The notes beneath the pieces were generated by a model. The model was not told the DNA's origin. It searched no databases and was given only the letters and a program-made list of their open reading frames with translations. Position numbers and translations under genes: made by a program. Positions 225 through 61,680 of a stretch of 64,000 bases of DNA are shown in pieces. Source of the DNA: Pseudomonadota bacterium (GTDB taxonomy: Bacteria; Desulfobacterota; Desulfobacteria; Desulfobacterales; JBDRRP01); assembly GCA_043825735.1 (NCBI GenBank), contig JBDRRP010000092.1:1-64000 (forward strand), in the 5' to 3' direction. Position 1 is the first letter of the stretch; each line of letters opens with the position of its first letter.

Positions 225-337
225 CACCACGAAGAACACGAAGGGCACGAAGCGAAACTTCTTGTAATGCAGTTCTCTGCGTCTTTGCGCCTCTGCGCGA
301 GACTTCGGTTTGGATTTCCTTCGTGCACTTCGTGGTT
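225..337. repeat. Tri-heptamer palindromic element (CACGAAG type) with a nested CTCTGCG half-element
   Basis: CACGAAG x3 at 228-252, inverted CTTCGTG x2 at 319-334; ctctgcg-t-ctttgcg-c-ctctgcg-cgaga at about 275-302. Confidence 0.8.
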
Positions 338-380
338 AAATCAATACGTTCGCGGTGAACCAGCAAAAAGGGGAAGACGC

Positions 381-1541
381 GTGAAAATTCATGAATATCA
401 GGCAAAAATGCTGTTTCGAAAATTCGGTGTCCCGGTTCCCGAGGGCGGCGTGGCTTTTTCCGTCAAGGAGGCCCTTGAAGTCGCCGAAGGCCTCGACGGA
501 TTTCCCGTGGTGGTCAAGGCACAAATCCACGCCGGCGGCCGCGGTAAAGGCGGGGGGGTCAAGATCGCCAAAACCAAGGACGATGTGACCCATTTTGCCG
601 GTGCGATCCTCGGCATGACCCTGGTGACCCATCAGACCGGACCCGAAGGCCGTCTGGTGAAAAAGGTCCTGGTGGAGCAGGGGCTCAATATCGTCAAGGA
701 ACTCTATCTCAGCATTCTGCCGGACAGGGCCTCGGCCACCCATCTGATCATGGCCAGCCAGGCTGGCGGTATGGACATCGAAGAAGTGGCGGCGACCACT
801 CCGGAAAAACTCATCAAGGTGCACGTGGATCCGCTTGTGGGGATCCAGGGTTATCACTGCCGGGAAGTGATGTTCGCGCTGGCCATCCCCGCCGCCGCCA
901 TGAAGTCTTTCACCCAGTTGCTCACCAACCTTTACAAACTATTTGTCGCCTACGACTGCTCCCTGCTTGAGATCAACCCGCTGGTCATCACCGCCGAACA
1001 CGCCGTGCTGGCTTTGGATGCCAAGGTCGACATCGACAGCAACGCGCTGTACCGGCACCCGGATGTCCAGGAATTCCGGGATCTGGATGAAGAAGATCCG
1101 CTGGAGGTGGAAGCCTCCAAGTACAATCTCAACTACATCAATCTGGACGGCAACGTGGGCTATATGGTCAACGGCGCCGTGCTGGCCATGGCGACCATGG
1201 ACATCATCAAGCAGGCGGGCGCCGCACCGGCCAATTTTTTGGATGTGGGGGGCGGCGCCAGCGCCGAAATGGTGGAAAACGGCTTCCGCATCATTTTGAG
1301 CGATCCCAACGTCAAGGGGATTCTCATCAACATCTTCGGCGGAATCCTGCGCTGCGACGTGCTGGCCCAGGGCGTGGTGGAGGCGGCCAAGAAAACCAAC
1401 ATCACCGTGCCGGTGGTGGTGCGCATGGAAGGCACCAACGTGGAGGAGGGCCGCCGCATCCTGGCGCAGTCCGGCCTCAACCTCACGACGGCCGTGGACC
1501 TGAAAGACGCCGCCCAGAAGGTGGCCGATCTCGTGGCATAG
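381..1541 (+). CDS. sucC: Succinyl-CoA synthetase beta subunit
   Basis: GTG start [49 protein letters not shown] motifs. Confidence 0.96.
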
Positions 1542-1638
1542 GCGCAGCGGTCTTGGATCCGTTTTAACGGGAACGGCCAAGGCGCGTCGACGGCGGGAGT
1601 ATTTACGACCATTAAAACACTACAGCGAGGATAGAATC

Positions 1639-2511
1639 GTGAGCATATTCGTGAGCAAGGATACCCGGCTGCTGGTTCAAGGCATCACCGGCCGGGAAGG
1701 TCAGTTTCACACGAGGCAGTGCGTGGCCTACGGCACCAGTGTGGTGGCCGGAGTCACCCCCGGAAAAGCCGGCCAGAAGATGGATGACGTGCCGGTGTTC
1801 AATACTGTGCGGGAAGCCGTTGCCGGCACCGGAGCGAACTGCAGCATGATTTTCGTGCCGCCGCCGTTTGCGGCCGATGCCATCATGGAGGCGGCCGACG
1901 CCGGGGTGCCGCTCATCGTGGCCATTACCGAGGGCATTCCGGTGATGGACATGATGAAGGTGAAGAACTTTCTCAAGGGACGCTCAAGCCGGCTTATCGG
2001 GCCCAATTGCCCCGGGATCATTACCCCCGGCGAGTGCAAGGTGGGGATCATGCCCGGGCCCATCCATCAGCCCGGCGGTCCGGTGGGCGTCGTTTCCCGA
2101 TCCGGGACCCTCACCTATGAAGTGGTTTTTCAGCTGACCCAGCAGAAACTGGGGCAGACGACCTGCATCGGCATCGGCGGAGACCCGGTCAACGGCACCA
2201 ATTTCATCGACTGCCTGGCGGCCTTCCAGGATGATCCGGACACCAAGGGCATCGTCATGGTGGGCGAAATCGGGGGTTCGGCCGAAGAGGAGGCCGCCGC
2301 GTTCATTGCCGACAAGGTCACCAAACCGGTGGTGGGTTTCATCGCCGGGCTCACCGCGCCGCCGGGCCGCCGCATGGGGCACGCCGGCGCCATCGTCAGC
2401 GGCGGCAGCGGCACGGCCCAGGGCAAGATCGCGGCCATGCGCGAAGGCGGCATCCACGTCTGTGAAAACCTCGGCACTCTCGGAGAACTCTGCGCCGACG
2501 TCTTCAGATAA
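1639..2511 (+). CDS. sucD: Succinyl-CoA synthetase alpha subunit
   Basis: [27 protein letters not shown] (phospho-His) motifs; follows sucC. Confidence 0.97.
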
Positions 2512-2537: not shown

Positions 2538-2545
2538 ATATCACT

Positions 2546-10031: not shown

Positions 10032-10127
10032 TCGCGCAGCGGCGCGGAGGCGCAGAGAAAAAAATACAATTAAAAAATGCCGAACAGGTCGTTAATGTTC
10101 TCTGCGTCCCTGCGTCTCTGCGCGAGA
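10032..10127. repeat. Tri-heptamer palindromic element (CGCAGAG type)
   Basis: CGCAGCG-G-CGCGGAG-G-CGCAGAG / AT-rich spacer / CTCTGCG-T-CCCTGCG-T-CTCTGCG. Confidence 0.8.
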
Positions 10128-18201: not shown

Positions 18202-18275
18202 TGGCTGGGGGACAAGGATTCGAACCTTGGTTAACGGGGCCAGAACCCGTCGTCCTGCCTCTAGACGATCCCCCA
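18202..18275 (-). tRNA. tRNA-Gln (CTG)
   Basis: Minus strand TGGGGGATCGTCTAGAGGCAGGAC...TTCTGGC anticodon loop...GGTTCGAATCC...CCCCAGCCA, 74 nt with encoded CCA. Confidence 0.95.
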
Positions 18276-24777: not shown

Positions 24778-25292
24778 CACATGAACGTCCACTCGAACCC
24801 ATTGGAGATGCCATGGCGCCCATGACGCCTTTTGAGCCCCGCCCGGACTGGGATACCTATTTTATGGAAATCGCCAAACTCGTGGCCAGGCGATCGACCT
24901 GCACCCGCCGCCAGGTGGGGGCCATCGTGGTCATGGACCGGCGCCTTCTCACCACGGGATACAATGGGGCGCCCTCGGGCATCGCGCACTGCCGGGAAGT
25001 GGGCTGCCTGCGCGAAACCCTCAATGTGCCATCCGGTGAGCGTCACGAACTGTGCCGGGGCATCCACGCCGAGCAGAATGCGATCATCCAGGCGGCACGC
25101 CACGGCGTATCCATTCGGGGGGGCACCCTTTACTGCACGAATCTGCCATGCTCCATTTGTGCGAAAATGATCATCAACGCGGGAATCAAGAACATCTTCT
25201 TTGCCGAGGGATATGCAGACCAGATGTCGGAAGGGATGCTGGCAGAGGCCGGTGTTGATCTCATCGGGCTCTCAGTGACCGGGAAAATTTGA
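24774..25292 (+). CDS. dCMP deaminase / ComEB-like cytidine deaminase family
   Basis: [26 protein letters not shown]. Confidence 0.9.
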
Positions 25293-25463
25293 TGGCGCAG
25301 TAAAAAGTCCGAATCTCTCGCAAAGCCGCCGTTCGACAGGCTCACGGCTCTGAGCGAAGTCGAAGGGCTACGATCGCAAAGCTAACGAGATGATATTAAA
25401 TAATGTTTTTCTTGGCGCACGTTGCGTCTTTGCGAGAAAGTTGCTTTTTTACGAGTTTGTCAA
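25288..25463. repeat. Composite palindromic element (outer GTAAAAAG IR + CGCAAAG heptamers) with nested hairpin insertion
   Basis: Near-identical to reverse complement of 61547-61680 except for about 40 bp inserted at 25329-25370. Confidence 0.85.
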
Positions 25464-38100: not shown

Positions 38101-38150
38101 CCGGTTATTTCCAGTGTTGTCAATTCCCCTGCTTGCTGCGTTGAATATGA

Positions 38151-38233
38151 ACCACGGAGACACGGAGAACACGGAGGTTTTTTTAAAAAATTAATGCTTT
38201 TGTTTTTCTCCGTGCCCTCCGTGACTCCGTGGT
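38151..38233. repeat. Tri-heptamer palindromic element (CACGGAG type)
   Basis: CACGGAG-A-CACGGAG-AA-CACGGAG / AT-rich spacer / CTCCGTG-CC-CTCCGTG-A-CTCCGTG. Confidence 0.85.
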
Positions 38234-38345
38234 GATAAAACATTCGTGACGCAAAGAGGCAGCAGCAATCTTACTTGAGCATCGTCGATAACCAGCTTCT
38301 GCCCGGCCGCCGCGGCGGACGGTAAATGGAATACGGAGAGATACC

Positions 38346-39907: not shown

Positions 39908-40025
39908 TTTGATGAACCGGTAAAAAGTGATTTTGAACCACAGAGACCGCAGAGAATATTATGAGTAATTAATAGGTTATCTCTGTGTTCTCTGTGGTGA
40001 TTTCAGACTTTTTACGAGTTTGTCA
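39908..40025. repeat. Composite palindromic element (outer GTAAAAAG IR + CRCAGAG heptamers)
   Basis: TTTGATG..GTAAAAAG...CACAGAG-AC-CGCAGAG / CTCTGTG-TT-CTCTGTG...CTTTTTACGAGTTTGTCA; sister of 47262-47395. Confidence 0.8.
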
Positions 40026-42220: not shown

Positions 42221-42233
42221 CCGAACAGGCGGC

Positions 42234-42419: not shown

Positions 42420-42528
42420 TTTTTGGCTCCTTATCACTGAAACGGCCGGCATCCCGCCGGCCTCGTCAATCGAAATCCGCTCTATATACGGTATCCGGTG
42501 TTCTGTAAAGGACATTTTACATTCGATC

Positions 42529-42613
42529 ACCACGAAGTTCACGAAGAACACGAAGATTTAAATTTTCCAATACTGTTAATGATTTCCTTCGTGCCCTTCG
42601 TGTATTTCGTGGT
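42529..42613. repeat. Tri-heptamer palindromic element (CACGAAG type)
   Basis: CACGAAG-TT-CACGAAG-AA-CACGAAG / CTTCGTG-CC-CTTCGTG-TA-TTTCGTG. Confidence 0.85.
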
Positions 42614-42671
42614 TGACCATTCACTGGTGCGGATAAGTCTAATTACGTTTTTTGGGCAAACGCATTGTTTT

Positions 42672-43812: not shown

Positions 43813-44121
43813 AATGCGCGTCCTTTCCTGGTAGAAGCCGGCCCTGCAACGCGGCGCTGCTGGGAATTTTTCCGGTGAGGGGGGGCGGACCGGGCCTGCT
43901 TAGATCAGATCCTGCGACCGGCGTCAGCCGCCGGAACACTAATTCCGGTTCACCCCTTCCGCCAAATACGCTATATATAGTGTTACCCCTGGCGCTTGTC
44001 AACCGGTCAGAGCCGGTTCTGTCAGAGGGCATCATTATGGTTAAGTCATTATAAGTTGCTGTAGATATTATTAATTACATTCCGGCGCGATTCCGGCGCC
44101 AGTGTTTTGGGAGACTCCGCG

Positions 44122-44892: not shown

Positions 44893-45056
44893 CGTATTTG
44901 TCAGAATAATGTTCTGTTACATCCCCAAGACCTATCGGAGGCGGGATCGAAATCGGGATCGAAATCGATGTTTTCCAAGGTCGATACCGATAGCGATTTG
45001 GATGCTCACCAGGCCTTGCCGGGAACCAAAATCTACCATATTCTGGATGGACACTA
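44890..45056. mobile_element. MITE-like element related to 29109-29348, carrying an ATCG-hexamer palindrome
   Basis: Right end GGCCTTGCC(G/A)GGAACC...AAAATCTACCA...TGGACAC shared with the 29.1-kb element; imperfect terminal IR TAG..CAGAATA / TATTCTGG..CACTA. Confidence 0.6.
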
Positions 45057-45057
45057 A

Positions 45058-46227: not shown

Positions 46228-46337
46228 TGCCGGTATATTTCCTTTTTTTTTAATGGAGATCGAATATAACACTGCCATTTCTGGCGTCAATCCAATATGG
46301 CCTGTCGCGTCGACTTAATCCGCAGCACTGGATGTGA

Positions 46338-46411
46338 ACCACGAAGGCCACGAAGCGCACGAAGAAAAACAAATGGGTTAAAACCGTCGTGTCCTTCGTG
46401 AACTTCGTGGT
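46338..46411. repeat. Tri-heptamer palindromic element (CACGAAG type)
   Basis: CACGAAG-GC-CACGAAG-CG-CACGAAG / CGTCGTG-TC-CTTCGTG-AA-CTTCGTG. Confidence 0.85.
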
Positions 46412-46466
46412 GAAAATATGACGGCATTGACACCGGATACCCAACCTCGCTGGAGATTCTCAACCA

Positions 46467-47246
46467 ATGACAGAAGATGCGCCGTATTATGTTTCCCAGG
46501 GCTCGGAGATCGCACTATTCGAGGCTGCATTCGCCGGCCGGCTACCGGTGATGCTCAAAGGTCCCACCGGCTGTGGCAAGACCCGTTTTGTGGAATACAT
46601 GGCCCATCGCCTGAACCGACCGCTCATTACCGTCGCCTGTCACGAAGATCTTTTTTCTTCTGACCTTATCGGCCGCTTCCTGCTCCAGCATGAGGAAACA
46701 GTGTGGGTGGACGGTCCGCTGACCCGCGCGGTGCGGTCCGGGGCCATCTGCTATCTGGATGAAATCGTCGAGGCCCGCAAGGACACCACTGTGGTCATCC
46801 ATCCCCTCACCGACAACCGGCGGATGCTCCATATCGACCGGAAAGGCGAATCGGTGGCGGCCCACCCGAGTTTCATGATGGTCATCTCCTACAACCCTGG
46901 ATACCAGTCGGTGCTCAAGGACCTCAAGCAAAGCACCCGCCAGCGGTTTGTGGCCATTTCATTCGACTATCCGCCGGCAGACAAGGAAACCGATATCGTG
47001 GCCACCGAAGCCCGCATCGATGAAGACACCGCCCGCCGACTGGTGCGTCTTGGTGAAAAAATCAGAGGGGTAAGGGAGGTCGGTCTCACTGAAGGGGCCA
47101 GCACGCGGCTGCTGATCTACGCCGGAGAGCTGATCCGCCGCGGGATTCCGCCGGCCGAGGCCTGCCGCAGCGCCGTGGCCCTGCCGCTGACCGACGATGA
47201 TCGCATGCAGGAGACCCTGGGGGCGCTCATCGACGATCTATTCTAG
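46467..47246 (+). CDS. CbbQ/NirQ/NorQ-family MoxR-type AAA+ ATPase
   Basis: PYY N-terminus, GPTGCGKT Walker [11 protein letters not shown]alker [19 protein letters not shown]. Confidence 0.93.
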
Positions 47247-47261
47247 TGTCTATTGCCCATG

Positions 47262-47395
47262 TTTGACAAATTCGTCAAAAAGCCATTTTGAACCGCAGAG
47301 AGCGCAGAGGAACGCAGAGAATATGTTTAATAATGATTTATCTCTGCGGTCTCTGCGTCCTCGGTGGTGATTTCAGACTTATCAGATGACCATCA
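47262..47395. repeat. Composite palindromic element between the AAA+ and VWA genes
   Basis: TTTGAC..TCGTCAAAAAG...CGCAGAG x3 / CTCTGCG x2-3...GATTTCAGACTT; sister of 39908-40025. Confidence 0.8.
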
Positions 47396-50085
47396 TGTTT
47401 GACTTCAATGACCTTCATCGGTTCGATCCGGAAATGGCCGCCCGCCTGGCGGATGGCTTTGGTCGCTGGCCGCGACCGCCGGATCCGTCTCTGGTCGATG
47501 CCCTGGCCGGGGATATTCTGAAGGGGCTCTCTGTTGAGCCGACGTTCGGGCAGGCTCTGGCGGACGGGGTGACCGAAGTGATCCGCACAGGAACTCCTGC
47601 CGCAGTGGCCCGCTACCGGGAATGCGTCGCTCAATTTGCAGATGTCGGCCCGACCCTGGGGCGCATCATGGCCAGGGCACTGGTGCCGGTGACGGTTCAA
47701 GGCGATGATGCGTTTCTGGGCGATGTCCTGTCGGTGGTTGTGGTCATGCGGCGCAAGGGAACGCATACCCTGACGGATCCCCTAAACGCACTGGGGGCGG
47801 TGCTGGCCGGCGGCGACCTGCCGGCGGCCGCCGCCTATCTCAAACTCCTTTCGGCCACTTTTTCGCGCAGCCTGACCTATAACCGTGCGACCCATCTCAC
47901 CAAGCACCTGCCCAGGGCGGTGCTGTGCCTCCAGCCGGCCGCACGCGCATGGCAGATCGACCATTTGACCACTGCCATGATCGTGAGCGACTGGCTGGCC
48001 GAACGGCTGTGGGAAAGCCTTGTTGGCGGCGATCTGCGCTTGCTTTCTAACGACGGCTTGAGGGCCTTTGTCGACGACGCCTGTCGACGGTTTCAACGCG
48101 ACCCGGAGGAAGGCCTCGTCTTTGCCGCCATGCGTTCCCAACAGGGCCGGGATGCCTGTGCGGCGCTGCGGGTCGCAGTGCCGCTGACGGAGGTCCGCGG
48201 CGCGCTCAGCGCCTATGCATCGCTGCGGTTGGGCCGGGGCTGCGCCATCCGGTCCATGTCTGATCTGCCGGCGGCGGCCTCAGGTGATCAACGGATGCCG
48301 TTGGTGTGCAGTGACGGGCGGGCCATTTACCTTGCCGATGTGATGGACAGCTACCCCGAGGCGCCTCAAAACCGGGCGCTGTACCAGTGCCTGGTACGCC
48401 TGGAATGCGCCGTCCTGGAAAGCGGTACCTACGATTTTGACATGGACAAGGCCGCAGATCGCCTCGGTGCCGAGCGGCCGGTGTCAGGCGATGGCTTGAC
48501 GACAGACATTGCCTGCTGGCTTTTGCGTTATGCCTCCCCCCCACTGGCGGCCTATCTGTTTTCCGCCTTCGAATATGCCCGCATTTATCTGTGGAGCCGC
48601 AGCCGCTACCCCGGCGCGCTGCGTCAGGCGGTTCCTTTTCTTGAGACGGCCTGCCGGCAGACGATGCTGGCCTGGCCGGAGCATCCGTTTACACCACTGG
48701 CGGTCTGGCCGGCGATCTCTCGGCGGGACCATGGCGCGGCCGCGGTAATCGCTGCCATGGGGGCATTTGACGCCGTTATGACTGAAGCCAGCACCGTTGA
48801 GGATACGATGGTGTTTCTCGATGGCGTTTATCCTTCGCTATCGGCGCTGATCGGTGACGCGGCATCCGGACTGCCCGATCTTCCTTTCGGGCGGCGGATT
48901 CTGCCGGAGGGGCATGATGCCGGCCTTGCGGCTGAGCACCGCGAGGCGCGCCGCATCCAGCAGACGCTGGCACGGCGCGGGGTGTCGGTGTACCGCTCCG
49001 AGCTCATCCGGCAATATCGGGACGGCGGCAACACCATCACGCCGGAGGGGGTGCGGCAGGCTGTTTCGGCATCGGCCCGGTGTGCCGGGACGTGGGCACT
49101 GCCGGCAGTGCCGATGCGTGACGGGTTCTTGTCGGTGGACGACCTTTTTTCCGAGACGGTTCCCTCCTTGGAGGCCGATACCCTGGGTGATCCGGTTTAC
49201 CGGTACCCTGAGTGGGACGGGCGGCAGGGGGACTACCGGGGCGATCATGTGAAGGTTCGGGTCGGCACGCCGGCGGTTGCCGATGCCACGGCGTGCGCGG
49301 TGGTGCTGCGCCAGCGGCAAGACCTGGTGGCGCGCATTCGCAGGGCCTTCGAGCTGCTCCGGCCTCAGGGGTTGATACTGCTGCGGCGATGGATGGAGGG
49401 GGACGATTTCGATTACCGGGCGCTGCTGGACTTTGCAGTGGACCGGCGCAGCGGCCGCACCCCGTCTGAGCGGGTCTATCTAAAGCGCTTGAAGGCGCAC
49501 CGTGATGTGGCCACACTGCTGCTGGTGGATCAATCCCGGTCGACGGCGCATCCTGCCCTGGGGAGCCCCCACAGCGTCATGGACGTGGAAAAGGCCGCCA
49601 TCGTTTTGTTTTGCGAAGCGCTCGGCGTGCTGGGGGACCGGTTTGCCGTGGCCGGTTTTTCCGGCACCGGGCGTCTGGGCGTGGACTATTTCTGGATCAA
49701 GACCTTTGATGAGCCCATGGGCACCGGTGTGTGGGGACGTATCGCCGGCATGGCACCGCTTCGCAGCACCCGCATGGGAGCGGCCATCCGACACGCGACG
49801 GCGTCCTTCGAATCGGCGCCGGCCGCCGTCCGGTTGCTCATCGTACTTGGAGACGGTTTTCCCAATGATGTTGACTACAAAAAAGGCTATGCGATAGAAG
49901 ACACGCGAAAGGCTATCCAGGAGGCGCACGCCAGGCACATTTACACCCACGGCATTACGGTAAATATTGCCAGTGATGCCGGCCTTGATGCGCTCTACGG
50001 CGGCAGCGCCCACACGGTGATATCCGATGTTCGTGAATTGCCGGATGCCTTGTGGCGTGTCTACGCAAATCTGACCAGGCGGTGA
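47395..50085 (+). CDS. NorD/CbbO-like von Willebrand factor A domain protein (start 47386 or 47395)
   Basis: YPEWD, MIDAS DQSRS, TRMGAAIRHA, GDGFPND; follows NorQ-like ATPase. Confidence 0.85.
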   Translation: MFDFNDLHRFDPEMAARLADGFGRWPRPPDPSLVDALAGDILKGLSVEPTFGQALADGVTEVIRTGTPAAVARYRECVAQFADVGPTLGRIMARALVPVTVQGDDAFLGDVLSVVVVMRRKGTHTLTDPLNALGAVLAGGDLPAAAAYLKLLSATFSRSLTYNRATHLTKHLPRAVLCLQPAARAWQIDHLTTAMIVSDWLAERLWESLVGGDLRLLSNDGLRAFVDDACRRFQRDPEEGLVFAAMRSQQGRDACAALRVAVPLTEVRGALSAYASLRLGRGCAIRSMSDLPAAASGDQRMPLVCSDGRAIYLADVMDSYPEAPQNRALYQCLVRLECAVLESGTYDFDMDKAADRLGAERPVSGDGLTTDIACWLLRYASPPLAAYLFSAFEYARIYLWSRSRYPGALRQAVPFLETACRQTMLAWPEHPFTPLAVWPAISRRDHGAAAVIAAMGAFDAVMTEASTVEDTMVFLDGVYPSLSALIGDAASGLPDLPFGRRILPEGHDAGLAAEHREARRIQQTLARRGVSVYRSELIRQYRDGGNTITPEGVRQAVSASARCAGTWALPAVPMRDGFLSVDDLFSETVPSLEADTLGDPVYRYPEWDGRQGDYRGDHVKVRVGTPAVADATACAVVLRQRQDLVARIRRAFELLRPQGLILLRRWMEGDDFDYRALLDFAVDRRSGRTPSERVYLKRLKAHRDVATLLLVDQSRSTAHPALGSPHSVMDVEKAAIVLFCEALGVLGDRFAVAGFSGTGRLGVDYFWIKTFDEPMGTGVWGRIAGMAPLRSTRMGAAIRHATASFESAPAAVRLLIVLGDGFPNDVDYKKGYAIEDTRKAIQEAHARHIYTHGITVNIASDAGLDALYGGSAHTVISDVRELPDALWRVYANLTRR

Positions 50086-50088
50086 CCG

Positions 50089-50547
50089 GTGGGCAATTTG
50101 ACCTCAGAACAGTGCCTTTACGACGGTATTTTTGAGTGGGAGGGCTACGGCGGCGCCTTCAAGCTGGCCAGTGGCAAGTGCTACCTCAAGGTATACGATT
50201 TAACCCGGGGCTCCCAGAGCCCGGTGGCCGTTCTCAAACCGGTGATCGTATTAGCCATGGACATGCCAGATAGCCCCATGTCAGTGAGAAGCTGCATCGG
50301 GCATATTGCCACCCGGGTGGTGACGGACCACGGCATCTCGCCCGCGCGGACCCTGTTCGTGGAATACTACCCCGCGATTCATTATGGCGAACACGGCGAG
50401 CGGCACATTGCGCGCCGTTTCGAGGCGGTGGATTTCGAATGGCACGGATACCGGGCGCTGTTTCCCAAATGGCGCACCGTCCCGCTTCCCCTGCTGACGG
50501 TCATTGCCCCCCTGACCGCAGGATGGCCGGAGGTCTCCGACGGTTGA
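50089..50547 (+). CDS. Hypothetical protein, apparently co-transcribed with the AAA+/VWA pair
   Basis: Starts 3 nt after VWA stop; protein-like composition. Confidence 0.7.
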   Translation: MGNLTSEQCLYDGIFEWEGYGGAFKLASGKCYLKVYDLTRGSQSPVAVLKPVIVLAMDMPDSPMSVRSCIGHIATRVVTDHGISPARTLFVEYYPAIHYGEHGERHIARRFEAVDFEWHGYRALFPKWRTVPLPLLTVIAPLTAGWPEVSDG

Positions 50548-50647
50548 CGCAGGGTCGGCTCTCACCGAGATGCCTTCCCTGCCGGCGCAACCACTGGACG
50601 CGCTCTGGGGCCGCTGACCACCATCGCCCGCTTTGAAAGAGGCTCGC

Positions 50648-51595
50648 CTACTCGCAGGGACCGTTGAAAGCCTTGTTTCCCAGCCAGTCGTTCACGAAAT
50701 GAAGGGTCACGTCGGTGGTTTGGCCCGATGCGCTCGCAGCCTGGGCAAGAGGGCCCCTGAGGGCGTCTGCCTCCGGGGCGGCGTCGATGAGGGCATAAAG
50801 GGAGATGCTGCGTTTATAGAACCCTGCGGCTTCCCGGAGGCGGTCCTGGGTCGCGCGGATGTCGCCCATGGCTTTGAGATCGTCGGCCATGCCGCGGTAG
50901 TATCCCTGGAGATGATCGGCCGCCAGTGCTTTTTCAAAATGCGCCATACCGGCGTCAAGGTCTCCATCGGAGCGGGCCAGATGCCCCAGGGAGTAGTGGA
51001 TGAGCGCGGCGGTGGCGGTGTCATTATCTCCGACGGATGTCATCGCCTGGGCCAGCAGCGCCCGGGCCGCATCAGGGTTCCCGCGTCGCATCTGAAGCAC
51101 TGCGTCGGCAGCCAAAAGGGGCGCGGCATCGGGGCCGGCAGGCGGCCCGGCGGCGCGGGCTTCGGACAGGGCGGCATCGGCGGCATCGTATCGGCCGAGA
51201 TGCGTGAGCGCTGTGGTTTTGTTCACCAGGGTTGCGCGCATGCTGGCGGTATTGGCGCTGCCGAGATCGATATCGAGCGCTTCGTTGAAAAAGACCAGTG
51301 CACTATCGGCTTTCCCGGTGCGCAGGTAGGTGTTGCCCATGTTATTGAGGCAGACGGCCATCTCCTGCAGGTGATCGCCGGCCACCAGTTCCGGGTATGC
51401 CCTGCGGTAGTGGTGCAATGCCTTGGGGTAGCAGCCTTTGCGGTACCATGCGTCGGCCTTCTGCAGTTCCTTTACACCGGCGCTCAGATGCGGTGCGGCG
51501 GGCGTGGCCAGCTGACGGCTGCCGCCGCAGGCGACCGCGCTCATGATCAGCAAGATGATTGTCAGGCTCCGGCGGATGGGATGTGCCGTGTTCAT
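50648..51595 (-). CDS. TPR-repeat lipoprotein
   Basis: Lipobox AVAC; repeated TPR motifs (LNNMGNTY, YSLGHLA). Confidence 0.8.
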   Translation of the reverse strand: MNTAHPIRRSLTIILLIMSAVACGGSRQLATPAAPHLSAGVKELQKADAWYRKGCYPKALHHYRRAYPELVAGDHLQEMAVCLNNMGNTYLRTGKADSALVFFNEALDIDLGSANTASMRATLVNKTTALTHLGRYDAADAALSEARAAGPPAGPDAAPLLAADAVLQMRRGNPDAARALLAQAMTSVGDNDTATAALIHYSLGHLARSDGDLDAGMAHFEKALAADHLQGYYRGMADDLKAMGDIRATQDRLREAAGFYKRSISLYALIDAAPEADALRGPLAQAASASGQTTDVTLHFVNDWLGNKAFNGPCE

Positions 51596-51843
51596 GGTGG
51601 CAGGGCTCCGATGAGGGGCTGTGGTCGCATGGGGCGGATAACGTAAAAAACATACACCGTCGGCCGTGGAAAGTCAAAGCAGCCGGCAATGCCGAAGCAA
51701 TCACTGCTTGACCTGGCGGCCGGCTTGTGCTCAAAAGTTTCTGATACGCTGGGCAACCGGCTGATGACGGGGCATGTGATCCGCCGCCTTAAGGGGCCAG
51801 AGAAACGGGATGGCTGGTCGCCAGCGTGCCGGAGGAGTTGCCA

Positions 51844-52227
51844 ATGCGGGAAATCATTTGGATCGGCGCAGGGGGTTTCATCGGTGCCGTTCTGCGCTAC
51901 CTGGTCAGTGGCAGGGTGCAGGACATGAGCGGCAGCATCAATTTCCCCTGGGGCACCCTGACGGTCAACCTAATGGGATGCCTGGTGATTGGCGCACTCA
52001 CCCACATGGCCGAGGCGCGCTCACTGTTTTCCCCGGAAACCCGGATGTTTCTGCTGGTGGGCATCCTCGGTTCCTTCACTACGTTTTCAACATTTGCCAA
52101 CGAGTCCCTCAGCCTGATACGATCGGGACAGGTTTCCCTGGCCTTGGTTTACGTGGGAGCCCATACTGTCATCGGCATCTTTTTCGTGCTTATCGGGTAC
52201 GCCGGCTCGCACACCATCTGGAGATAA
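51844..52227 (+). CDS. crcB: Fluoride efflux channel CrcB/FluC
   Basis: GGFIGAVLRY, FPWGTL.VN, GSFTTFSTF. Confidence 0.95.
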   Translation: MREIIWIGAGGFIGAVLRYLVSGRVQDMSGSINFPWGTLTVNLMGCLVIGALTHMAEARSLFSPETRMFLLVGILGSFTTFSTFANESLSLIRSGQVSLALVYVGAHTVIGIFFVLIGYAGSHTIWR

Positions 52228-52229
52228 TC

Positions 52230-52568
52230 GTGAACTTACCGGAAACCGGCTGCCTGCTGCGTATTTTTATTGGCGAGTCCGATCGCGCCGACGGAAAGCC
52301 TCTATACGAGTGGATCATTCTGAAGGCCAAGGCGCATGGACTGGCAGGGGCCACGGCATGGCGGGCCATGATGGGCTACGGAGCCAACAGTCGTATTCAC
52401 ACCAGCAAGATATTACGGCTTTCGGCGGATATGCCCGTCATTATCGAAATGGTGGATGTTCGCGAAAAGCTGGAAGCTTTTCTTGACGCAATCGATCCGC
52501 ATATCCACGGCGGCCTGGCCACTCTCGAAGCCGCCCAGGTGCGCTTTTACCGGGGCAAGCCGAAGTAG
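52230..52568 (+). CDS. DUF190 (PII-like) protein
   Basis: LLRIFIGESD..PLYE...GAT..R..GYG..S..H; typical crcB neighbour. Confidence 0.88.
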   Translation: MNLPETGCLLRIFIGESDRADGKPLYEWIILKAKAHGLAGATAWRAMMGYGANSRIHTSKILRLSADMPVIIEMVDVREKLEAFLDAIDPHIHGGLATLEAAQVRFYRGKPK

Positions 52569-52608
52569 CCCATTCTTATCAGGGCGGGCCCATACCAAGG
52601 AGACGAGC

Positions 52609-52992
52609 ATGACGAACCAAACCGTTCACACGCCTCAGGCACCAGCGGCGATCGGCCCATACTCCCAGGCCATCATCAGCGGCCACCACGTGTTTGTCAG
52701 CGGACAACTGGGAATGGAACCGGCGTCGGGCAATTTGGTGGGGCCGGCGCTGGCCGATCAGGCTCGTCAGGCGTTGGCGAATCTAAAGCAGATCGTCCTG
52801 GCGGCCGGCAGCGCCATGGACCGGGTAGTGGCCGTGGACGTGTTTCTGACGGATATGGGTGATTTTATCGAGTTCAACGGTATCTATGCTGAGGCTTTCG
52901 GCGATCACAAACCAGCCAGGGCGGTGGTGGCCGTGGCGGGGTTGCCCAAGGGGGCCTGCGTGGAGATCAAATGCATTGCGACTCTGGCCTGA
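52609..52992 (+). CDS. RidA/YjgF family enamine deaminase
   Basis: PAAIGPYSQA, SGQLG, PARA, LPKG..VEI. Confidence 0.92.
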   Translation: MTNQTVHTPQAPAAIGPYSQAIISGHHVFVSGQLGMEPASGNLVGPALADQARQALANLKQIVLAAGSAMDRVVAVDVFLTDMGDFIEFNGIYAEAFGDHKPARAVVAVAGLPKGACVEIKCIATLA

Positions 52993-53049
52993 CCGCGCTG
53001 ACCGCGCCTTTCGGTGTTGCACGACCGGTCGGTGACGGGCACTCATTAA

Positions 53050-53181
53050 TGACAAACTCATAAAAAAGCAATTTTCTCGCAAAGACGCCAAGTGCGCCAA
53101 GAAAAACATTCTTAATATCAATGTATTAGAATTTCTATTGGTGCGGATTTGCGAGAGGTCCCGACTTTTTCAGGACTATCA
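53050..53181. repeat. Composite palindromic element (CGCAAAG/CGCCAAG type)
   Basis: AAAAAAGCAATTTTCTCGCAAAGA.GCCAAGTGCGCCAAGAAAAACATT shared with 61547-61680. Confidence 0.85.
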
Positions 53182-53202
53182 TTATTGGGAGATTGAAAAA
53201 CG

Positions 53203-55416
53203 ATGGCGGGCAATGGCAAACTCCTGGACGATGAGGCCGAAAAGCTTTTTCAGGAACTTCTCGGCATCGATACTGCTTATGGAAAAGACGGCCTTTCTGA
53301 GAGCCTCAATTCGGTGCTCCAGCAGCAGGATGCGCACTGCTTTATCATTATCGACCTGCTGGATCAGGTGGCTTCTTATATGACGCGTTGTGCCGACAGC
53401 GGCGTGGACCCCGTCGATGCCGAAACACTCGACAACATTCTGGGTTGCATCGACACCCTCGCCAGGGAGACCGACGGTGAACCGCACCTGGTTGTGAGAT
53501 ACTGTGGTTACAGTGAACCCGGGCAAGCCGAAGAGGTGGTCGACTACGAACTGGTGCTTCAGAATCTGCGCACCAACAGTGCCGCCATCACCGCAATGGT
53601 CAGCCGCTACGGTGAGGAGCGCGCAGGCTACGTCGATATTGCCCGTCGCGCGTTTGAGACACTCGCCCATCACGGCGTTATGAGCCTGTCCCTCAAATTG
53701 TCCACGGAAGAGGGTGCGCTTCGGCGGATGCCGCTGAGCATCACGCTACAGGTTCTTGCCCGGTTCAGGACCGCTGTCCAGACCGATGCGCCCATCGTAT
53801 TTACCCGCGGGCAGAAAACACTCCAATTGCCAGTGATCTCAGACGCGTACGGCGTGCCGAGCGAGAACCTGACCTTGCTATCGGCTGTTAATGGCATCGC
53901 TCCCCAGTCCATTGCCGCCGCCATTGCCAAACTCCAGGCCTCCGGTGTCATTGACCGCTATCTGGGTAGTTATGAAGCCCTGGTATCGCTGCATAAAAAA
54001 ACGCCCCAGCTCAGCAAACCACCCCTGGAGGTCAACAATTTCATGTGGCTGATGGCTGACGCGGATGGCGCTGAGATATCTCCGGAGCAGGCGCAGGTGG
54101 CCCGGCTGGCGGTTAAAGCCGCGCGCCATGCGCCGCTGCAGGCGGCATCGATGATTCAGGCCGTATACGGAGATGACTATGAACACATTGATGCCACCCG
54201 GTTGGGGCATCGCCTGAATGTGTCGACGGGGCTGCTCAATGCCGTCGATGAAGTGCCCGAGGGCTCGCCCATCGAAAGCGAAATCCTCAACAATCTCGAA
54301 CACCGCCTGGACGTGGTGGCCGACAAGGTGTTCGACGATCTGTTCTCAAAGGAGCGCCTGGCCGCATCCGGCGGTGGCGACTTTCTGGTGGGTCTGAACG
54401 ATAAGCTGCGGACCATGGTCAGTTTTTACAAGCGGCGCTGTGATGTCCGCCGCAAGCTTCAGCGGATCGTCCATGCTGATGTGGATTTAACCGATGACGA
54501 GTACGAGGCGCTCGCCAAGGACTACCGGATTTCGGCCGAGGACAGCCGCGAGATGATCCGTTTGCTGCGCACCTGCTTTTCGGGCGACGGGCGTTTCAGC
54601 AAGCGGGCGTTTCAGCAGGTCGTTTCCGTACTCAAACGCTATGAAGAAAAGATACTGGAGTTTCTCTGGAAATACCTCATGGAAGGCATCCATGAAGATG
54701 ACCGCATCGTGTTTCTCAACGCCCTTCAGCTGTTGATCGCCCAGATGGCCCAACCCAAGCGCTCAATCGGCATATTGCTTTCTGATTTTTACCGGGACAG
54801 CCAGCAGGTGAAGTACTCCGATGCCAAGGCCCTCATGCTCTGCTCGCTGTTGGTGCGGCGCTACACCAAGGCCCTGGTCGATGTGGAGATGACGCCCGAA
54901 GAAGTGCTGCAGATCGACGACAGTGTCGACACCGCCATCGCCGGATATGTGGCCTGGAAAATCGACAGGGATCAAAAGCGGTTTTTTGAAAAGATTCAGA
55001 CCATTCACCAACTCCTGATCGCGCTGTTGAACGCGGGCGACGCCGAGCCTACCGGCATGTCGCCGGAAACGCTTCTGGAACTCGAGCGGGAGTCTTATCT
55101 TTTTCTGGCCCTGGTGGGCGGCCTGACGGCTCGGTCGGTGATCCTGAGCGCCATCAAGGAGTACGGTGATCCGGAGTCTGTCCTTTATCAGGGGCCACGG
55201 AAGGCGGTGCCTCTTTCCGTGTTTATGAAGAACCTGCGGGTGGCGGTGCGGGGGCTTGCCCGCGTGGGCAAACCCGAAGATATCTCGCTGCTCGATTTGG
55301 TGCATCGGCACAGTGACCGGCTCAATGCCCTGGACGCCTCGCCCAAGCATCATGAACAGGTCAAGCGCATTCTGGAATGGACCCAGATGTCCACCCGTAT
55401 TATCGGCGATGGATGA
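53203..55416 (+). CDS. Large hypothetical protein (737 aa), predicted helical
   Basis: Long ORF with host-like codon usage and GGGAG RBS; no motif recognised. Confidence 0.8.
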   Translation: MAGNGKLLDDEAEKLFQELLGIDTAYGKDGLSESLNSVLQQQDAHCFIIIDLLDQVASYMTRCADSGVDPVDAETLDNILGCIDTLARETDGEPHLVVRYCGYSEPGQAEEVVDYELVLQNLRTNSAAITAMVSRYGEERAGYVDIARRAFETLAHHGVMSLSLKLSTEEGALRRMPLSITLQVLARFRTAVQTDAPIVFTRGQKTLQLPVISDAYGVPSENLTLLSAVNGIAPQSIAAAIAKLQASGVIDRYLGSYEALVSLHKKTPQLSKPPLEVNNFMWLMADADGAEISPEQAQVARLAVKAARHAPLQAASMIQAVYGDDYEHIDATRLGHRLNVSTGLLNAVDEVPEGSPIESEILNNLEHRLDVVADKVFDDLFSKERLAASGGGDFLVGLNDKLRTMVSFYKRRCDVRRKLQRIVHADVDLTDDEYEALAKDYRISAEDSREMIRLLRTCFSGDGRFSKRAFQQVVSVLKRYEEKILEFLWKYLMEGIHEDDRIVFLNALQLLIAQMAQPKRSIGILLSDFYRDSQQVKYSDAKALMLCSLLVRRYTKALVDVEMTPEEVLQIDDSVDTAIAGYVAWKIDRDQKRFFEKIQTIHQLLIALLNAGDAEPTGMSPETLLELERESYLFLALVGGLTARSVILSAIKEYGDPESVLYQGPRKAVPLSVFMKNLRVAVRGLARVGKPEDISLLDLVHRHSDRLNALDASPKHHEQVKRILEWTQMSTRIIGDG

Positions 55417-55603
55417 TGGTCGGTGACATCGTTTTCGATGGCGGCGCTCGAGCCGGGCGGCCAGAGAGCCCTTCCCCGTCGCCCCATGACAGTACCCCGT
55501 GTGATGCCGCAGGAGAGTGGTTTCGCGCGTTTTATGAATGGCATTCAGTGTTTGATTCCAACCCCACACTTTCCTCTTGACATCAGATTACAGGCAGAAT
55601 AGG

Positions 55604-55618
55604 AATGGTCAAACCATT
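55604..55618. promoter_or_regulatory. FadR/GntR-type operator upstream of the GntR gene
   Basis: AATGGT-CAA-ACCATT palindrome, downstream of TTGACA at 55577; second copy at 61736. Confidence 0.7.
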
Positions 55619-55698
55619 TTAGGGCGTTCGGGCAGCGTCCATTTTTGCCTTTATCTATCTTAAATAACTGAAATATTTATACTTCGGCCGGCTGAGAT

Positions 55699-56448
55699 AT
55701 GTTTCGCATTGCCAAACAGAACCGCATCTTTCAGGATGTGGTGGATCAGATTCAGGAGGCAATTCTCCGCGGTGATCTTCGGCCGGGGGATACCCTGCCG
55801 CCTGAGCGAGACCTCAAGGAAACGTTTCAGACCAGCCGCGGCACCCTCCGGGAAGCCTTGCGGGTGCTCGAGCAAAAAGGCCTTATTGAGATCCGGTTGG
55901 GGGTGCGGGGCGGTTCGGTGGTGAAGGCCGCCACAGGAGAGCCGTTCTCAGAGAGCCTCGATCTGTTGATCCGATCCCAGAAAGTCTCCCTCAGCCATCT
56001 CGCCGAGTTCCGCGAAGGCGTCGAGGGCACGGTCGCCGCGATGGCTGCTGCCCGGGCATCGAAGAAGGACTTGCGGATACTGGAGGCGCTCCTGGCCGAG
56101 GCCAAGCGCCACGTGGCGACCGGTCCTGCGGCTTGGGATGAATTCGTTAACGTTGACAAGCGCTTTCACCAGGCACTGGCGCGAATTTCCGGAAATCCCA
56201 TCTACATTCTGATCAACCAGATGGTTCACGACAATATCCAGCGCTACTATGATGATTTTCTGCCGATTGATAGCCGTGTGCTTACTGAAAACTATACCGA
56301 TCTTTGCCAGATCCTGGACATCGTAAAAAGCGGCGACAGCGAAGCGGCCCGGCGGGTGGCCGCTCGACATGTTCAGCGATTCAACGAGTACATGGAGTCA
56401 AATGTACAGTGGGCGGCGGCGGATATCGTCCGTGAGCGCAGTGCCTGA
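55699..56448 (+). CDS. GntR/FadR-family transcriptional regulator
   Basis: LPPERDL...SRGTLREAL..LE.KGL wHTH; FCD domain (FH, N, H). Confidence 0.93.
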   Translation: MFRIAKQNRIFQDVVDQIQEAILRGDLRPGDTLPPERDLKETFQTSRGTLREALRVLEQKGLIEIRLGVRGGSVVKAATGEPFSESLDLLIRSQKVSLSHLAEFREGVEGTVAAMAAARASKKDLRILEALLAEAKRHVATGPAAWDEFVNVDKRFHQALARISGNPIYILINQMVHDNIQRYYDDFLPIDSRVLTENYTDLCQILDIVKSGDSEAARRVAARHVQRFNEYMESNVQWAAADIVRERSA

Positions 56449-56483
56449 GGCGGTTGTTTTGCTTCCGACCCATTGAACAGTTT

Positions 56484-56569
56484 GCCACGAAGAACACGAA
56501 GATCACGAAGAAGATCTTCAACAACAATAAGTTATAAAAAGACTTCATGTGCTTCGTGAATTTCGTGGT
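56484..56569. repeat. Tri-heptamer palindromic element (CACGAAG type)
   Basis: CACGAAG-AA-CACGAAG-AT-CACGAAG / CTTCATG-TG-CTTCGTG-AA-TTTCGTG. Confidence 0.85.
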
Positions 56570-56660
56570 GATTGAAAAGCGGCCATCGGTGCGGCCGTTG
56601 ACACCACTGCGGCGCTTCATAGAGAAGCAAAACCCTAAAAAGCATGGCAGTTGACATCGG

Positions 56661-57425
56661 ATGACCCAACTTCGCCTTGACAACATCAGCGTGAGATTCG
56701 GTGGGCTTCAGGCCCTGAGCGACATTTCCTTCAGCGTCAACGCCGGTGAAATTGTCGGTCTCATCGGACCCAACGGCGCCGGGAAAACGACGATTTTCAA
56801 TGTCATCACCGGCGTATACAAGGCCTCGGACGGCGATGTGCAGTTGGACGGCAAGAGCCTGATCGGCCTTCGCCCTTACCAGATTCTGACCAGCGGTATT
56901 GCCCGCACATTTCAGAACATTCGGCTGTTTACCGTCATGACCGCCCTTGAAAATGCGATGGTGGCGCTTCACAGCCGCTCCAAAAAAGGGGTCGTGGGGG
57001 CCGTGCTGCGCACGCCCTCCCAGCGACGGGAGGAGCGATATATTCAGGAAAAGGCCTATGAGGCGCTGGAATTCATGGGCGTGGACCGGTTTGCCGACGT
57101 CGCTGCAGCCAACCTGCCTTATGGTCACCAGCGTCGGCTGGAGATCGCGCGGGCGCTCGCCTCGCAGCCGAAACTGCTGCTTCTCGACGAACCCGCCGCC
57201 GGGATGAATCCGATCGAGAGTCTGGCGCTGATGAAAGATATCGCCCGGATTTCGGATCTGGGAATCAACGTGCTCCTGGTGGAGCATGATATGAAAGTCG
57301 TGATGGGTGTCTGCCACCGGATCGTATGTATCGATCATGGTGTGAAAATTGCGGAGGGCACGCCCCAGGAAATTCAACGGGACCCGAAAGTGATCGAGGC
57401 CTATCTGGGAAAACCCGCCCAATAA
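56661..57425 (+). CDS. livG: HAAT-family ABC transporter ATP-binding protein
   Basis: GPNGAGKT, RTFQNIRLF, LPYG, LLDEPAAG, VIEAYLG. Confidence 0.9.
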   Translation: MTQLRLDNISVRFGGLQALSDISFSVNAGEIVGLIGPNGAGKTTIFNVITGVYKASDGDVQLDGKSLIGLRPYQILTSGIARTFQNIRLFTVMTALENAMVALHSRSKKGVVGAVLRTPSQRREERYIQEKAYEALEFMGVDRFADVAAANLPYGHQRRLEIARALASQPKLLLLDEPAAGMNPIESLALMKDIARISDLGINVLLVEHDMKVVMGVCHRIVCIDHGVKIAEGTPQEIQRDPKVIEAYLGKPAQ

Positions 57426-59584: not shown

Positions 59585-60800
59585 GAAAATCTGGAAAACC
59601 TATCTGATCGCAATGATCTGGCTGTTTGCGCTGCTCTGGCCGCTGCTCGGCATCCACAAGGACGGCACCCTGTCCGTCAAGACGACTGTCACCGTTTGGG
59701 CCTATATCGCGGTGGGGCTGCTGGTCTGTGTGCTCTTGAATCTGCTGAAAAAAAGCGGGCGGCTCGATGTCGTCATCGCACCTCTGACCACTGCCCGCGG
59801 TGCCGTCGCCGGCGGATTTTCGAGAACACCCCGCTGGTTGTTGCTCACGGTGCTGATGGGGGTGATGATCTACTATCCCTATTTCGGCTTCGTGGACCGC
59901 TACATGACCGATGTGGCCATCATGGTGCTGGTCTATGTCTGTCTCGGTCTGGGGCTTAACATCGTGGTGGGCCTGGCCGGGTTGCTCGATCTGGGGTACA
60001 TTGCCTTCTATGGGGTGGGGGCTTACACCTACGCACTGCTCAGCATACACTACCACTTTCCTTTCTGGATGGCACTGCCCGTCGCTGCCGGGATTGCCGC
60101 CATTGCCGGATGCATCATCGGCTACCCGACGCTGCGCATGCGCGGCGATTACCTGGCCATCGTGACCCTGGGCTTTGGCGAGATCGTCCGGCTGATTCTC
60201 AACAACTGGATGTCGCTTACCAATGGGCCCAATGGGATTCTCGGCATCGATCCGCCGGGGATCTATCTCCCCCATTTCGCCGGCGGTTTTTCGCTGGAGC
60301 ATCTGTGGCTCAAGAAACTTGAGTATCTCTACTATGTGATTCTCGCGCTGGCCGTGTTCACCATTTTCGCTGTTCACCGCCTCAATTTCTCACGGATCGG
60401 GCGCGCCTGGGAAGCCATCCGGGAAGATGAGACCGCTGCCGAACTGATGGGGGTCAACACGTTTATGCTCAAGCTGCTTGCCTATGCCATGGGCGCGGTG
60501 TTCGGAGGGCTTGCCGGGGCCTTCTTCTCGGCCCGGATGCGGTTCGTCAGCCCGGAGAGTTTCACCTTTATCGAATCGGCCATGGTACTGGCCATGGTGG
60601 TGCTGGGCGGTATGGCCTCCATCCCCGGGATCCTCCTCGGCGTTGCCGCGCTGATCGTTTTGCCGGAAGTATTTCGAGATTTCGAACTCTACCGCATGCT
60701 CGCCTTCGGTGCGGCCATGACCGTCATGATGATCTTCCGGCCGGCCGGGTTGATTCCGGCCAAGCGTATGGCAGGGCGCTCGGAAGAGAAGGAGGGATAG
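59562..60800 (+). CDS. livM: HAAT-family ABC permease
   Basis: GLNIVVGLAGLLDLGY, RGDYLAIVTLGFGE, AIREDE. Confidence 0.9.
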   Translation: MSMIPASKKIWKTYLIAMIWLFALLWPLLGIHKDGTLSVKTTVTVWAYIAVGLLVCVLLNLLKKSGRLDVVIAPLTTARGAVAGGFSRTPRWLLLTVLMGVMIYYPYFGFVDRYMTDVAIMVLVYVCLGLGLNIVVGLAGLLDLGYIAFYGVGAYTYALLSIHYHFPFWMALPVAAGIAAIAGCIIGYPTLRMRGDYLAIVTLGFGEIVRLILNNWMSLTNGPNGILGIDPPGIYLPHFAGGFSLEHLWLKKLEYLYYVILALAVFTIFAVHRLNFSRIGRAWEAIREDETAAELMGVNTFMLKLLAYAMGAVFGGLAGAFFSARMRFVSPESFTFIESAMVLAMVVLGGMASIPGILLGVAALIVLPEVFRDFELYRMLAFGAAMTVMMIFRPAGLIPAKRMAGRSEEKEG

Positions 60801-61532
60801 ATGGCCGAGGAGAGGCCCATTCTCGAGTTGCGGGACGTCCACACCAGCTACGGCAACATCAAGGCGCTCAAAGGGCTGTCTTTGAGAGTGTATCCGGGGG
60901 AGATCGTGACCATGATCGGTGCCAACGGTGCCGGCAAATCCACCACTTTAATGACGATTTGTGGCATCGTACCGCTCACTTCCGGCGAGATTTACTACGA
61001 CGGCCAGCCCATTCACGGAAAGGCTGCGGATCTGTTGCCGCAGATGGGGCTTTGCCAGGTGCCTGAGGGCCGCCGGATCTTCCCGCGGTTGACGGTGGAA
61101 GACAACCTGGAGATGGGGGCGTTTTTCCGCCGCAACAAGGAAGAAATGACCGGGGATATGGCGCGGGTGTTCGACCTCTTTCCGGTATTGAAGGAGCGGC
61201 GGCGACAGCAGGGGGGAACGCTTTCCGGTGGTGAGCAGCAGATGCTGGCCATTGGCCGCGCGCTCATGAGTCGGCCCAAACTGCTGCTTCTGGATGAACC
61301 GTCTTTGGGACTGGCGCCGCTCATCGTTCAGAAGATTTTTGAAATCGTCCGGGAGATCAACGCACGAGACGGTGTCACCATCCTGCTCGTGGAGCAAAAT
61401 GCCAACCTGGCGCTACAAGTCGCCCGGCGCGGTTATGTGCTTGAAACCGGCAGCATTATACTTGAAGACGACGCCAAGAGCCTTCTCCACAATCCTGAAA
61501 TTCGAAAAGCCTATCTTGGCGAAACCGAATAG
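60801..61532 (+). CDS. livF: HAAT-family ABC transporter ATP-binding protein
   Basis: GANGAGKST, VPEGRRIF, LSGGEQQM, LDEPSLGLAP. Confidence 0.92.
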   Translation: MAEERPILELRDVHTSYGNIKALKGLSLRVYPGEIVTMIGANGAGKSTTLMTICGIVPLTSGEIYYDGQPIHGKAADLLPQMGLCQVPEGRRIFPRLTVEDNLEMGAFFRRNKEEMTGDMARVFDLFPVLKERRRQQGGTLSGGEQQMLAIGRALMSRPKLLLLDEPSLGLAPLIVQKIFEIVREINARDGVTILLVEQNANLALQVARRGYVLETGSIILEDDAKSLLHNPEIRKAYLGETE

Positions 61533-61546
61533 GGTCAACGTCCAGT

Positions 61547-61680
61547 TTTGATGGTCCCGTAAAAAAGCAATTTTCTCGCAAAGAGGCCAAGTGCGCCAAG
61601 AAAAACATTTTTAATATCAACTTTTTAGCTTTGCGATCTCTGCGGCTTTGCGAGAGATTCGGATTTTTTACTGGACTGGT
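61547..61680. repeat. Composite palindromic element (CGCAAAG type)
   Basis: TTTGATGG..CGTAAAAAAG...TCGCAAAG...CTTTGCGAGA...TTTTTTAC; sister of 25288 and 53050. Confidence 0.85.

Follow-up and report, generated by a model that had tools for sequence, protein, structure and literature searches.

Three-box palindromes scattered through a Desulfobacterales genome as probable gene-less copies of the arms that bracket GxxExxY genes, carried mostly by miniature transposons

The stretch of DNA analyzed here, called the window throughout, comprises the first 64,000 nucleotides of contig JBDRRP010000092.1 (G000:C92:1-64000) of a 6.8-Mb Desulfobacterales genome, GCA_043825735.1, referred to as G000. A preliminary description of this sequence had reported eleven intergenic palindromes, each built of two or three tandem heptamers of consensus CRCNRAG followed by a spacer and the inverted heptamers, and all eleven were found at the positions claimed. 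We observed that these elements have two layers: a core of mirrored CRCnRAG rows and, on most copies, a mini-transposon shell. [quoted passage not shown]

Five of the window copies begin with TGA(T/C)-N6-GTAAAAA and are MITEs with ends resembling those of an IS1182-like insertion sequence (IS). The copy at 25290..25462 (173 bp, CGCAAAG core) lies between AATT and AGTT and has a small hairpin similar to repetitive extragenic palindromic (REP) sequences inserted at 25331-25368; such hairpins recur within other shells of G000. The copy at 39910..40025 (116 bp) carries a 2+2 CACAGAG/CGCAGAG core and is flanked by an exact 4-bp duplication, TCTT. At 47264..47395 (132 bp) the exact duplication is TGTT and coincides with the start of the downstream gene, which encodes 899 amino acids without a Pfam match; the duplication restores an ATG downstream of the MITE. 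The two remaining copies are decayed on the right: the right arm in 53050..53181 (132 bp, CGCAAAG/CGCCAAG core, flanks TTAA/TTAT), and the right end in 61549..61683, a member of a 133-bp subfamily with a CGCAAAG core. The starts originally given for these five (25288, 39908, 47262, 53050, and 61547) thus mark an outer transposon end that had been left undescribed.

Two further copies each retain one end of a second shell type, related to IS1595. The first, 38101..38294, is a decayed MITE with its right end at 38274-38294, a truncated left end, and a CACGGAG x3/CTCCGTG x3 core at 38153-38231, whose box is the same as that in the arms of a GxxExxY cassette at G000:C27:14549-15034. The second, 56484..56629, combines a CACGAAG x3 core (56486-56567) with an end at 56613-56629. 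Copies 42528..42614, which has no clear shell end, and 46337..46412, in which no shell end was detected, both have a CACGAAG x3 core and a flank resembling the IS1595-wrapped CACGAAG subfamily. No shell was detected around 10032..10125, a CGCAGAG-type core with 1,1 spacing (boxes 10043-10057 and 10100-10122), or around 225..337, a hybrid in which CACGAAG x3 (228-252) faces an inner CTCTGCG-type arm (275-297) and an outer CTTCGTG arm (319-334). The single architecture proposed for the family applies to all eleven elements, with the exceptions that the element at 225 is a hybrid, that the one at 53050 has a decayed right arm, and that the one at 25288 has a hairpin between its boxes.

We scanned the whole genome with a strict pattern of two to four CRCNRAG boxes separated by spacers of 1-2 nt, and a pair was defined as a left and a right array no more than 120 nt apart. 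The scan returned 627 left and 639 right arrays forming 348 pairs, compared with no pairs and only 6-18 arrays per side in three 4th-order Markov control genomes. Spacer lengths were mirrored in 182/198 full 3+3 elements, and spacer bases paired at about or below chance, as the preliminary description had stated for the window; base 4 of the box is also often unpaired (pairing 0.47-0.83). The intergenic position was borne out as well. We classified 310 elements that have 13-62-nt loops and are not at the end of a contig. The neighboring genes are in tandem for 200 of them, convergent for 59, and divergent for 33; another 6 are at contig edges, and only 12 overlap a gene called by our own simple gene finder. 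No transposase or integrase was found in the 48 of 208 window open reading frames that were scanned, in agreement with the reported absence of such genes.

Shell ends were detected at 235/310 elements (150 IS1182-like, 76 IS1595, 9 both, and 75 neither), compared with a background of 57/1500. The IS1182-like shell bears the marks of transposition: an exact 4-bp duplication flanks 48/108 short elements with such ends (3.1 after shuffling), or 56/138 in a second count, the target resembles TCA-ANNT-TGA, and heptamer arrays lie within 89 of the 108. This target consensus resembles the element's own ends, so that both junctions look alike, and at some sites MITEs stand in tandem. No transposase was found between strictly paired IS1182-like ends. 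Through an unpaired end, we located the cognate transposase on contig C38 of G000, a 559-amino acid protein with DUF772 and DDE_Tnp_1_6 domains encoded by an IS with TGATGACCTCGTAAAAAC ends; such ends occur on both sides of 9/19 loci of its homologues, with a 4-bp duplication at 3/9. This domain pair we take to denote the IS1182 family.

The second shell has ends like TACGCTTATGCAGAAAGCGCCAG and an 8-bp duplication, whose offset was found by scanning, that is exact in 9/40 elements (0.2 expected) and has at most two mismatches in 23/40 (2.0 expected). Its ends match those of IS1595-family (PF12762) elements in G000 and its relatives. No transposase was found on the viral contigs carrying an IS1182-like end or on the genome contigs carrying an IS1595-type end. 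The metagenome contigs that matched 37500-57400 come from other organisms and yielded one useful joint: a contig of a related organism connects position 47245 to position 47419, and the one ATGTTTGA at this joint marks the empty site of copy 47262. Together, these data show that both shells are ordinary MITEs, sharing ends with transposase-coding IS and making target duplications of 4 and 8 bp, and we are confident that the gene-less copies are carried by them. The mobility suggested earlier is thus real, and the part of it demonstrable in G000 belongs to these DDE-type shells.

In G001, a genome of the same genus, the element was absent from all seven orthologous spacers checked (7/7), among them that of copy 42528, and the spacers of the gat operon vary in the same manner; presence and absence at orthologous sites therefore behave as proposed for a mobile family. 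Triple-array matches number 823 in G000 and 3 in G001, yet G001 has 164 IS1182-like ends. Shells of this type enclose unrelated REP-like cores in both genomes, and the ispG-proS spacer of G001, the same spacer that holds window copy 38151, contains an independent IS1182-like MITE with such a core. Relatives G015 and G047 have 546 and 270 array matches, single or alternating in the manner of bacterial interspersed mosaic elements, with an IS end at only 0/14 and 1/18 sampled clusters, respectively; spread without these shells therefore occurs. In G030, 5/28 clusters hold IS1595-wrapped copies. Capture of arrays by shells has thus recurred.

The link to GxxExxY genes, which the preliminary description had put forward, was supported: arms like the window arrays bracket these genes in G000 and in other sources. 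All seven GxxExxY (TIGR04256) genes of G000 have arrays on a flank, and 3/7 have complete left-arm/right-arm brackets. When matched arm pairs 151-1600 nt apart in G000 were inspected, only three genes, all GxxExxY, were neatly enclosed, as judged by eye. Comparable arrays were found at 0/8 Y1_Tnp, 0/3 four-helix-bundle (IVP), and 0/4 GIY-YIG genes of G000, and these candidate partners, the first of them the RAYT class, were rejected (0/15). The IVP genes at G000:C15:27890, C151:12274, and C152:24563 have a comparable layout built from different words, with rows of other 7-9-mers standing inverted on their two sides.

We collected 119 GxxExxY loci, 112 of them with enough flank: 35 from G000 and its relatives and 77 from metagenome or viral contigs. 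Viral contigs gave only 3 GxxExxY loci. Scoring a locus as bracketed when a left arm lay upstream and a right arm downstream, we found 70/112 bracketed (16/35 and 54/77 in the two groups, the latter being best alignment matches and so biased to part of the family), compared with 0/77 control stretches. Both arms had the same modal box in 52/70 (10.5 after shuffling). IS1182 or IS1595 ends were found near none of the 112 loci. No clear target-duplication peak appeared at the arm ends of 69 cassettes (top z 3.0 over ~1150 offsets) or at the core ends of 116 copies lacking IS1182 ends; the shell duplication reached z 14 in the same scan. The full cassette is thus arm-gene-arm, with no IS ends and no target duplication. 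Outside its tandem CRCnRAG rows, each arm has an outer consensus wTTYAC, and the innermost left box often adjoins the start codon. In the spacer downstream of gatA, surveyed across the gat operons of 30 genomes, a cassette is present in 2/25 and arrays in 5/25 (both cassettes included), the rest being array-free. From these data, we consider it very probable that all eleven palindromes descend from cassette arms, as versions of the GxxExxY-bracketing arms that lack the gene.

Several other arrangements of these genes were seen. Two lie in the gat operon of G000, and the spacers around gatC and gatA in relatives repeatedly hold GxxExxY cassettes, gene-less palindromes, or small genes with other short repeats. 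Tandem-paired GxxExxY domains occur in longer frames (260-932 amino acids) at G015:C178, G047:C53, and G044:C610.

The partner genes encode members of the GxxExxY/PDDEXK_3 family (TIGR04256, PF13366), which is very large: 7,987/8,000 scored candidates pass an E value of 1e-10. PMC3424549 lists the function of PF13366 as "Unknown." A sequence search of the PDB found no solved relative of the 125-amino acid protein, and an Atlas feature search returned nothing beyond the family itself. Its AlphaFold2 model has a predicted local distance difference test score of 96, and the best fold matches are all of the PD-(D/E)XK type, led by the Cas4 protein SSO0001 (Foldseek E 5.7e-3; Z 7.5, root-mean-square deviation 5.0, 101 residues aligned), which is tied with restriction enzymes. 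Across 70 sequences, His-21, Glu-30, Glu-80, Lys-82, and Gln-94 are invariant, and Asp-70 and Tyr-98 are conserved in at least 90%. These residues agree with the RecB motifs that PMC8610317 gives for Cas4, and the protein shows, besides modest fold scores, motifs I (E), II (D), and III (ExK) and the QxxxY motif of RecB/Cas4-type enzymes. We therefore describe GxxExxY as a predicted RecB/Cas4-type PD-(D/E)XK nuclease, an activity read from fold and motifs.

The palindromes had been thought to conserve structure rather than sequence, with the right arm of each copy tracking its left. The arms do match (0.84 at variable positions, compared with 0.47 after shuffling), and the match reflects one founder word rather than compensatory change. 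In G000, in-register pairing (0.91, 0.75, and 0.85) was much the same as off-register pairing (0.80-0.88) and within-arm similarity (0.83-0.89); complete cassettes of many origins, 52 in all, gave an in-register identity of 0.88-0.92 and an off-register identity of 0.89-0.91. Covariation, tested by script and not with a covariance model, was at chance in the two largest subfamilies (5 compensatory changes vs 3.7 expected; 0 vs 0.3). Nor was there an excess of G-U over A-C on the mRNA strand (39 vs 60 in 110 elements). The apparent covariation is thus explained by the six boxes being copies of one founder word, and the structural claim is not supported.

What is conserved is the CRCnRAG word and its phase: the word and the box spacing are kept, and variation is seen at base 4, in the spacers, and in the loop. 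We measured this in copies gathered by their IS ends alone (47/48 at 135 nt and 26/28 at 133 nt). Consensus at the box positions was 0.96 (135 nt) and 0.98 (133 nt), like that at the fixed end positions, and it dropped to 0.66-0.85 at the spacers (0.80-0.85), the loop (0.82-0.84), and six free end positions. The 133-bp family also retains a mid-helix mismatch (46/78 cells unpaired). Nested copies serve as a natural experiment, from which it can be seen that boxes within shells remain under constraint. In the IS1595-wrapped family, CACGGAG arms had 0.2 mismatches in 20 simple copies compared with 2.0 in 11 copies with a second palindrome in the loop, and flank divergence was equal in those copies whose end is in register (10 simple and 9 nested). 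What is retained seems to be a single intact palindrome in each element, although the copies are not independent of one another.

These measurements bear on the possibility that the elements are retained in the form of RNA hairpins of three helices with symmetric loops that end, stabilize, or process mRNA; in the cassettes, the arms would pair and loop out the nuclease frame like intervening sequences. Such a role would account for the stable single-stranded-DNA folds of the window copies (z between -2.4 and -8.9 in 10/11), the mirrored spacer lengths, the enrichment in convergent-gene gaps (59/292 vs 387/2835), the closeness to the upstream stop codon (median 64 vs 114 nt), and the innermost left box at the start codon. 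We nevertheless regard it as improbable, given compensatory changes at chance, in-register identity no higher than off-register identity in the 52 cassettes, the lack of a G-U excess on the mRNA strand, and the mismatch retained by the 133-bp family. Even less probable, in our view, is that the boxes are sites for a host nucleoid or regulatory protein such as IHF or HU, as proposed for Geobacter metallireducens (PMC2700814). Their sequence-specific conservation and intergenic position agree with that proposal; their absence from the seven orthologous spacers and near absence from G001, their depletion in divergent-gene gaps (33/292 vs 592/2835), and their tie to one gene family across metagenomes do not.

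A stronger competitor, although still an unlikely one, holds that GxxExxY cassettes left the palindromes behind as passive remnants, spread only by DDE-type MITEs, slippage, and recombination, with the nuclease inert on them. In its favor, IS ends flank most G000 copies, many of the 75 copies without them share flanks with the wrapped subfamilies, and the IS1182-like shells with unrelated REP-like cores show that the shell works without this core. Passive carriage accounts poorly for boxes that are as conserved as the positions read by the transposase and relaxed only alongside a second palindrome, or for the arrays of G015 and G047. Because arrays multiply almost shell-free in these two relatives, the putative nuclease likely spreads them itself. 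Array abundance also follows the presence of the gene: among 60 relatives, a GxxExxY gene scores over the cut-off in 18/19 genomes with at least 20 triple-array matches and in 16/41 others (Fisher p 4.5e-5, a value that overstates the association, as kin are non-independent and the 20-array threshold was chosen after the counts were seen). For the favored reading, proteins with like box types also group together on a quick tree of 92 sequences (24 changes, compared with 44.9 after shuffling), a signal that is likewise overstated, since kin share box labels and co-inheritance alone can produce the clustering.

Several further observations weigh against recognition and spreading of the boxes by the nuclease. 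The mirrored spacer lengths, present in 52/52 cassettes, are equally compatible with a hairpin and with a protein complex that is symmetric. A paired non-box segment between the IS end and the boxes is also conserved (0.94), and pairing or copy-to-copy conversion could account for part of the box conservation. The fold matches are weak, with the Foldseek E value of SSO0001 being the best and Z never reaching 8. At 42/112 loci, the gene is not bracketed by the CRCnRAG box, and distant homologues bear other repeated words. Genome G043 has 67 arrays but merely a fragment of a GxxExxY gene, and CACGAAG, the commonest box of the shell-free G000 copies, occurs in 0/7 G000 cassettes. For shell-free copies and cassettes, no empty site exact to the base was found. 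With these points taken into account, we hold it to be an evenly balanced question whether GxxExxY is the box-specific binder and spreader of its repeats.

If the nuclease does act on its boxes, as we favor, it would bind the rows of three boxes in the two arms and cut nearby, and repair would then copy arms or whole cassettes into new A+T-rich intergenic spots without a target duplication, much as RAYT proteins seed REP sequences. In a variant that these data do not separate from such copying, the gene would home to a palindrome lacking it and enter the loop there. Some copies would be caught between IS ends and then amplified by DDE transposases. The mismatched spacers every 8-9 bp may keep the palindrome from becoming a long, perfect, and unstable repeat.

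The gene-less repeat itself is less novel than it had appeared, as this kind of repeat has been in print since 2009. In G. metallireducens, Aklujkar et al. (PMC2700814) described 21 pairs in which each member, the two being on opposite strands, consists of three tandem TCTCCGTS[Y] repeats. They termed these "class 2 predicted global regulator binding sites" and considered them putative IHF/HU sites. Their arms, CTCCGTG-NN-CTCCGT(C/T)-T-CTCCGTG, have the same 1,2 spacing as window copy 38151; compared by eye with Figure S4, this copy and the CACGGAG subfamilies fit, and our other box types differ in word. The class 2 repeats have longer loops and a middle box one base off CRCNRAG, and the accessible text of that paper mentions neither a nuclease gene nor a MITE shell. 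Literature searches, from which the majority of paywalled papers and every bioRxiv supplement were out of reach, found no publication tying a GxxExxY nuclease to repeats. Integron attC sites are defined by extrahelical bases, by RYYYAAC/GTTRRRY ends, and by cassette arrays accompanied by an integron integrase. The elements described here have symmetric loops in place of extrahelical bases and lie singly between housekeeping genes, a comparison confined to element anatomy, as no search of the genome for IntI was made.

The closest working analogue is the REP/RAYT system, together with TIRtrons (PMC8266576 and PMC3733652). In both cases, a small nuclease gene sits between inverted repeats that are also scattered gene-less in intergenic DNA, singly or in alternating clusters, and repeat type follows protein clade. 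The partner here is a PD-(D/E)XK protein (PF13366) and not a HUH tyrosine transposase, in keeping with the lack of arrays at the Y1_Tnp genes, and the arms are three 7-bp boxes in a row rather than the small stem-loop of REP sequences, a palindrome of 20-40 bp tagged with GTAG or CGTC. As the partner is not a HUH enzyme, the elements are not members of REP/RAYT and may be likened to such a system with a different enzyme class. Bacterial MITEs are well known (PMC3184786 and PMC11602168) and include Correia, Nezha, and Chunjie of Geobacter uraniireducens (PMC3184786). Like them, the shells fold strongly as hairpins, show target duplications and empty sites, and have terminal inverted repeats that also occur on a transposase-coding IS; they differ in that their interior is the repeat of a second, unrelated system; the duplications reported for Chunjie, compared by description only, are of 9 bp rather than 4 and 8 bp.

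A few other features of this DNA were recorded. An Rfam scan of the window gave only a tRNA at the gathering level, along with sub-threshold miRNA hairpins in 37900-62000, and no family for the elements; the tRNA gene lies at 18205-18275 on the minus strand. A protein with ankyrin repeats and a caspase domain is encoded at 31410-32951, also on the minus strand. The commonest consensus-free words with an 8-9-nt period in G000 are tandem repeats of the AACGATC/ATCCCAA type, which outnumber the CRCNRAG boxes.

For the GxxExxY family, listed so far without a function, the arms offer a concrete candidate substrate, and as the box word varies by clade, its specificity is directly testable. We tentatively suggest, as a reading somewhat short of an even prospect, that GxxExxY cassettes are a widespread self-spreading element without a DDE or HUH transposase or a recombinase, in which a putative minimal nuclease reads three 7-bp boxes. 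Such a nuclease would move its own cassette and the gene-less palindromes without target duplications, and it would still act on copies captured by MITEs, so that MITEs with one intact palindrome would be favored. If GxxExxY does mobilize its repeats, the REP/RAYT idea would extend to a second enzyme class, and intergenic repeats annotated in 2009 as regulator sites would be explained.

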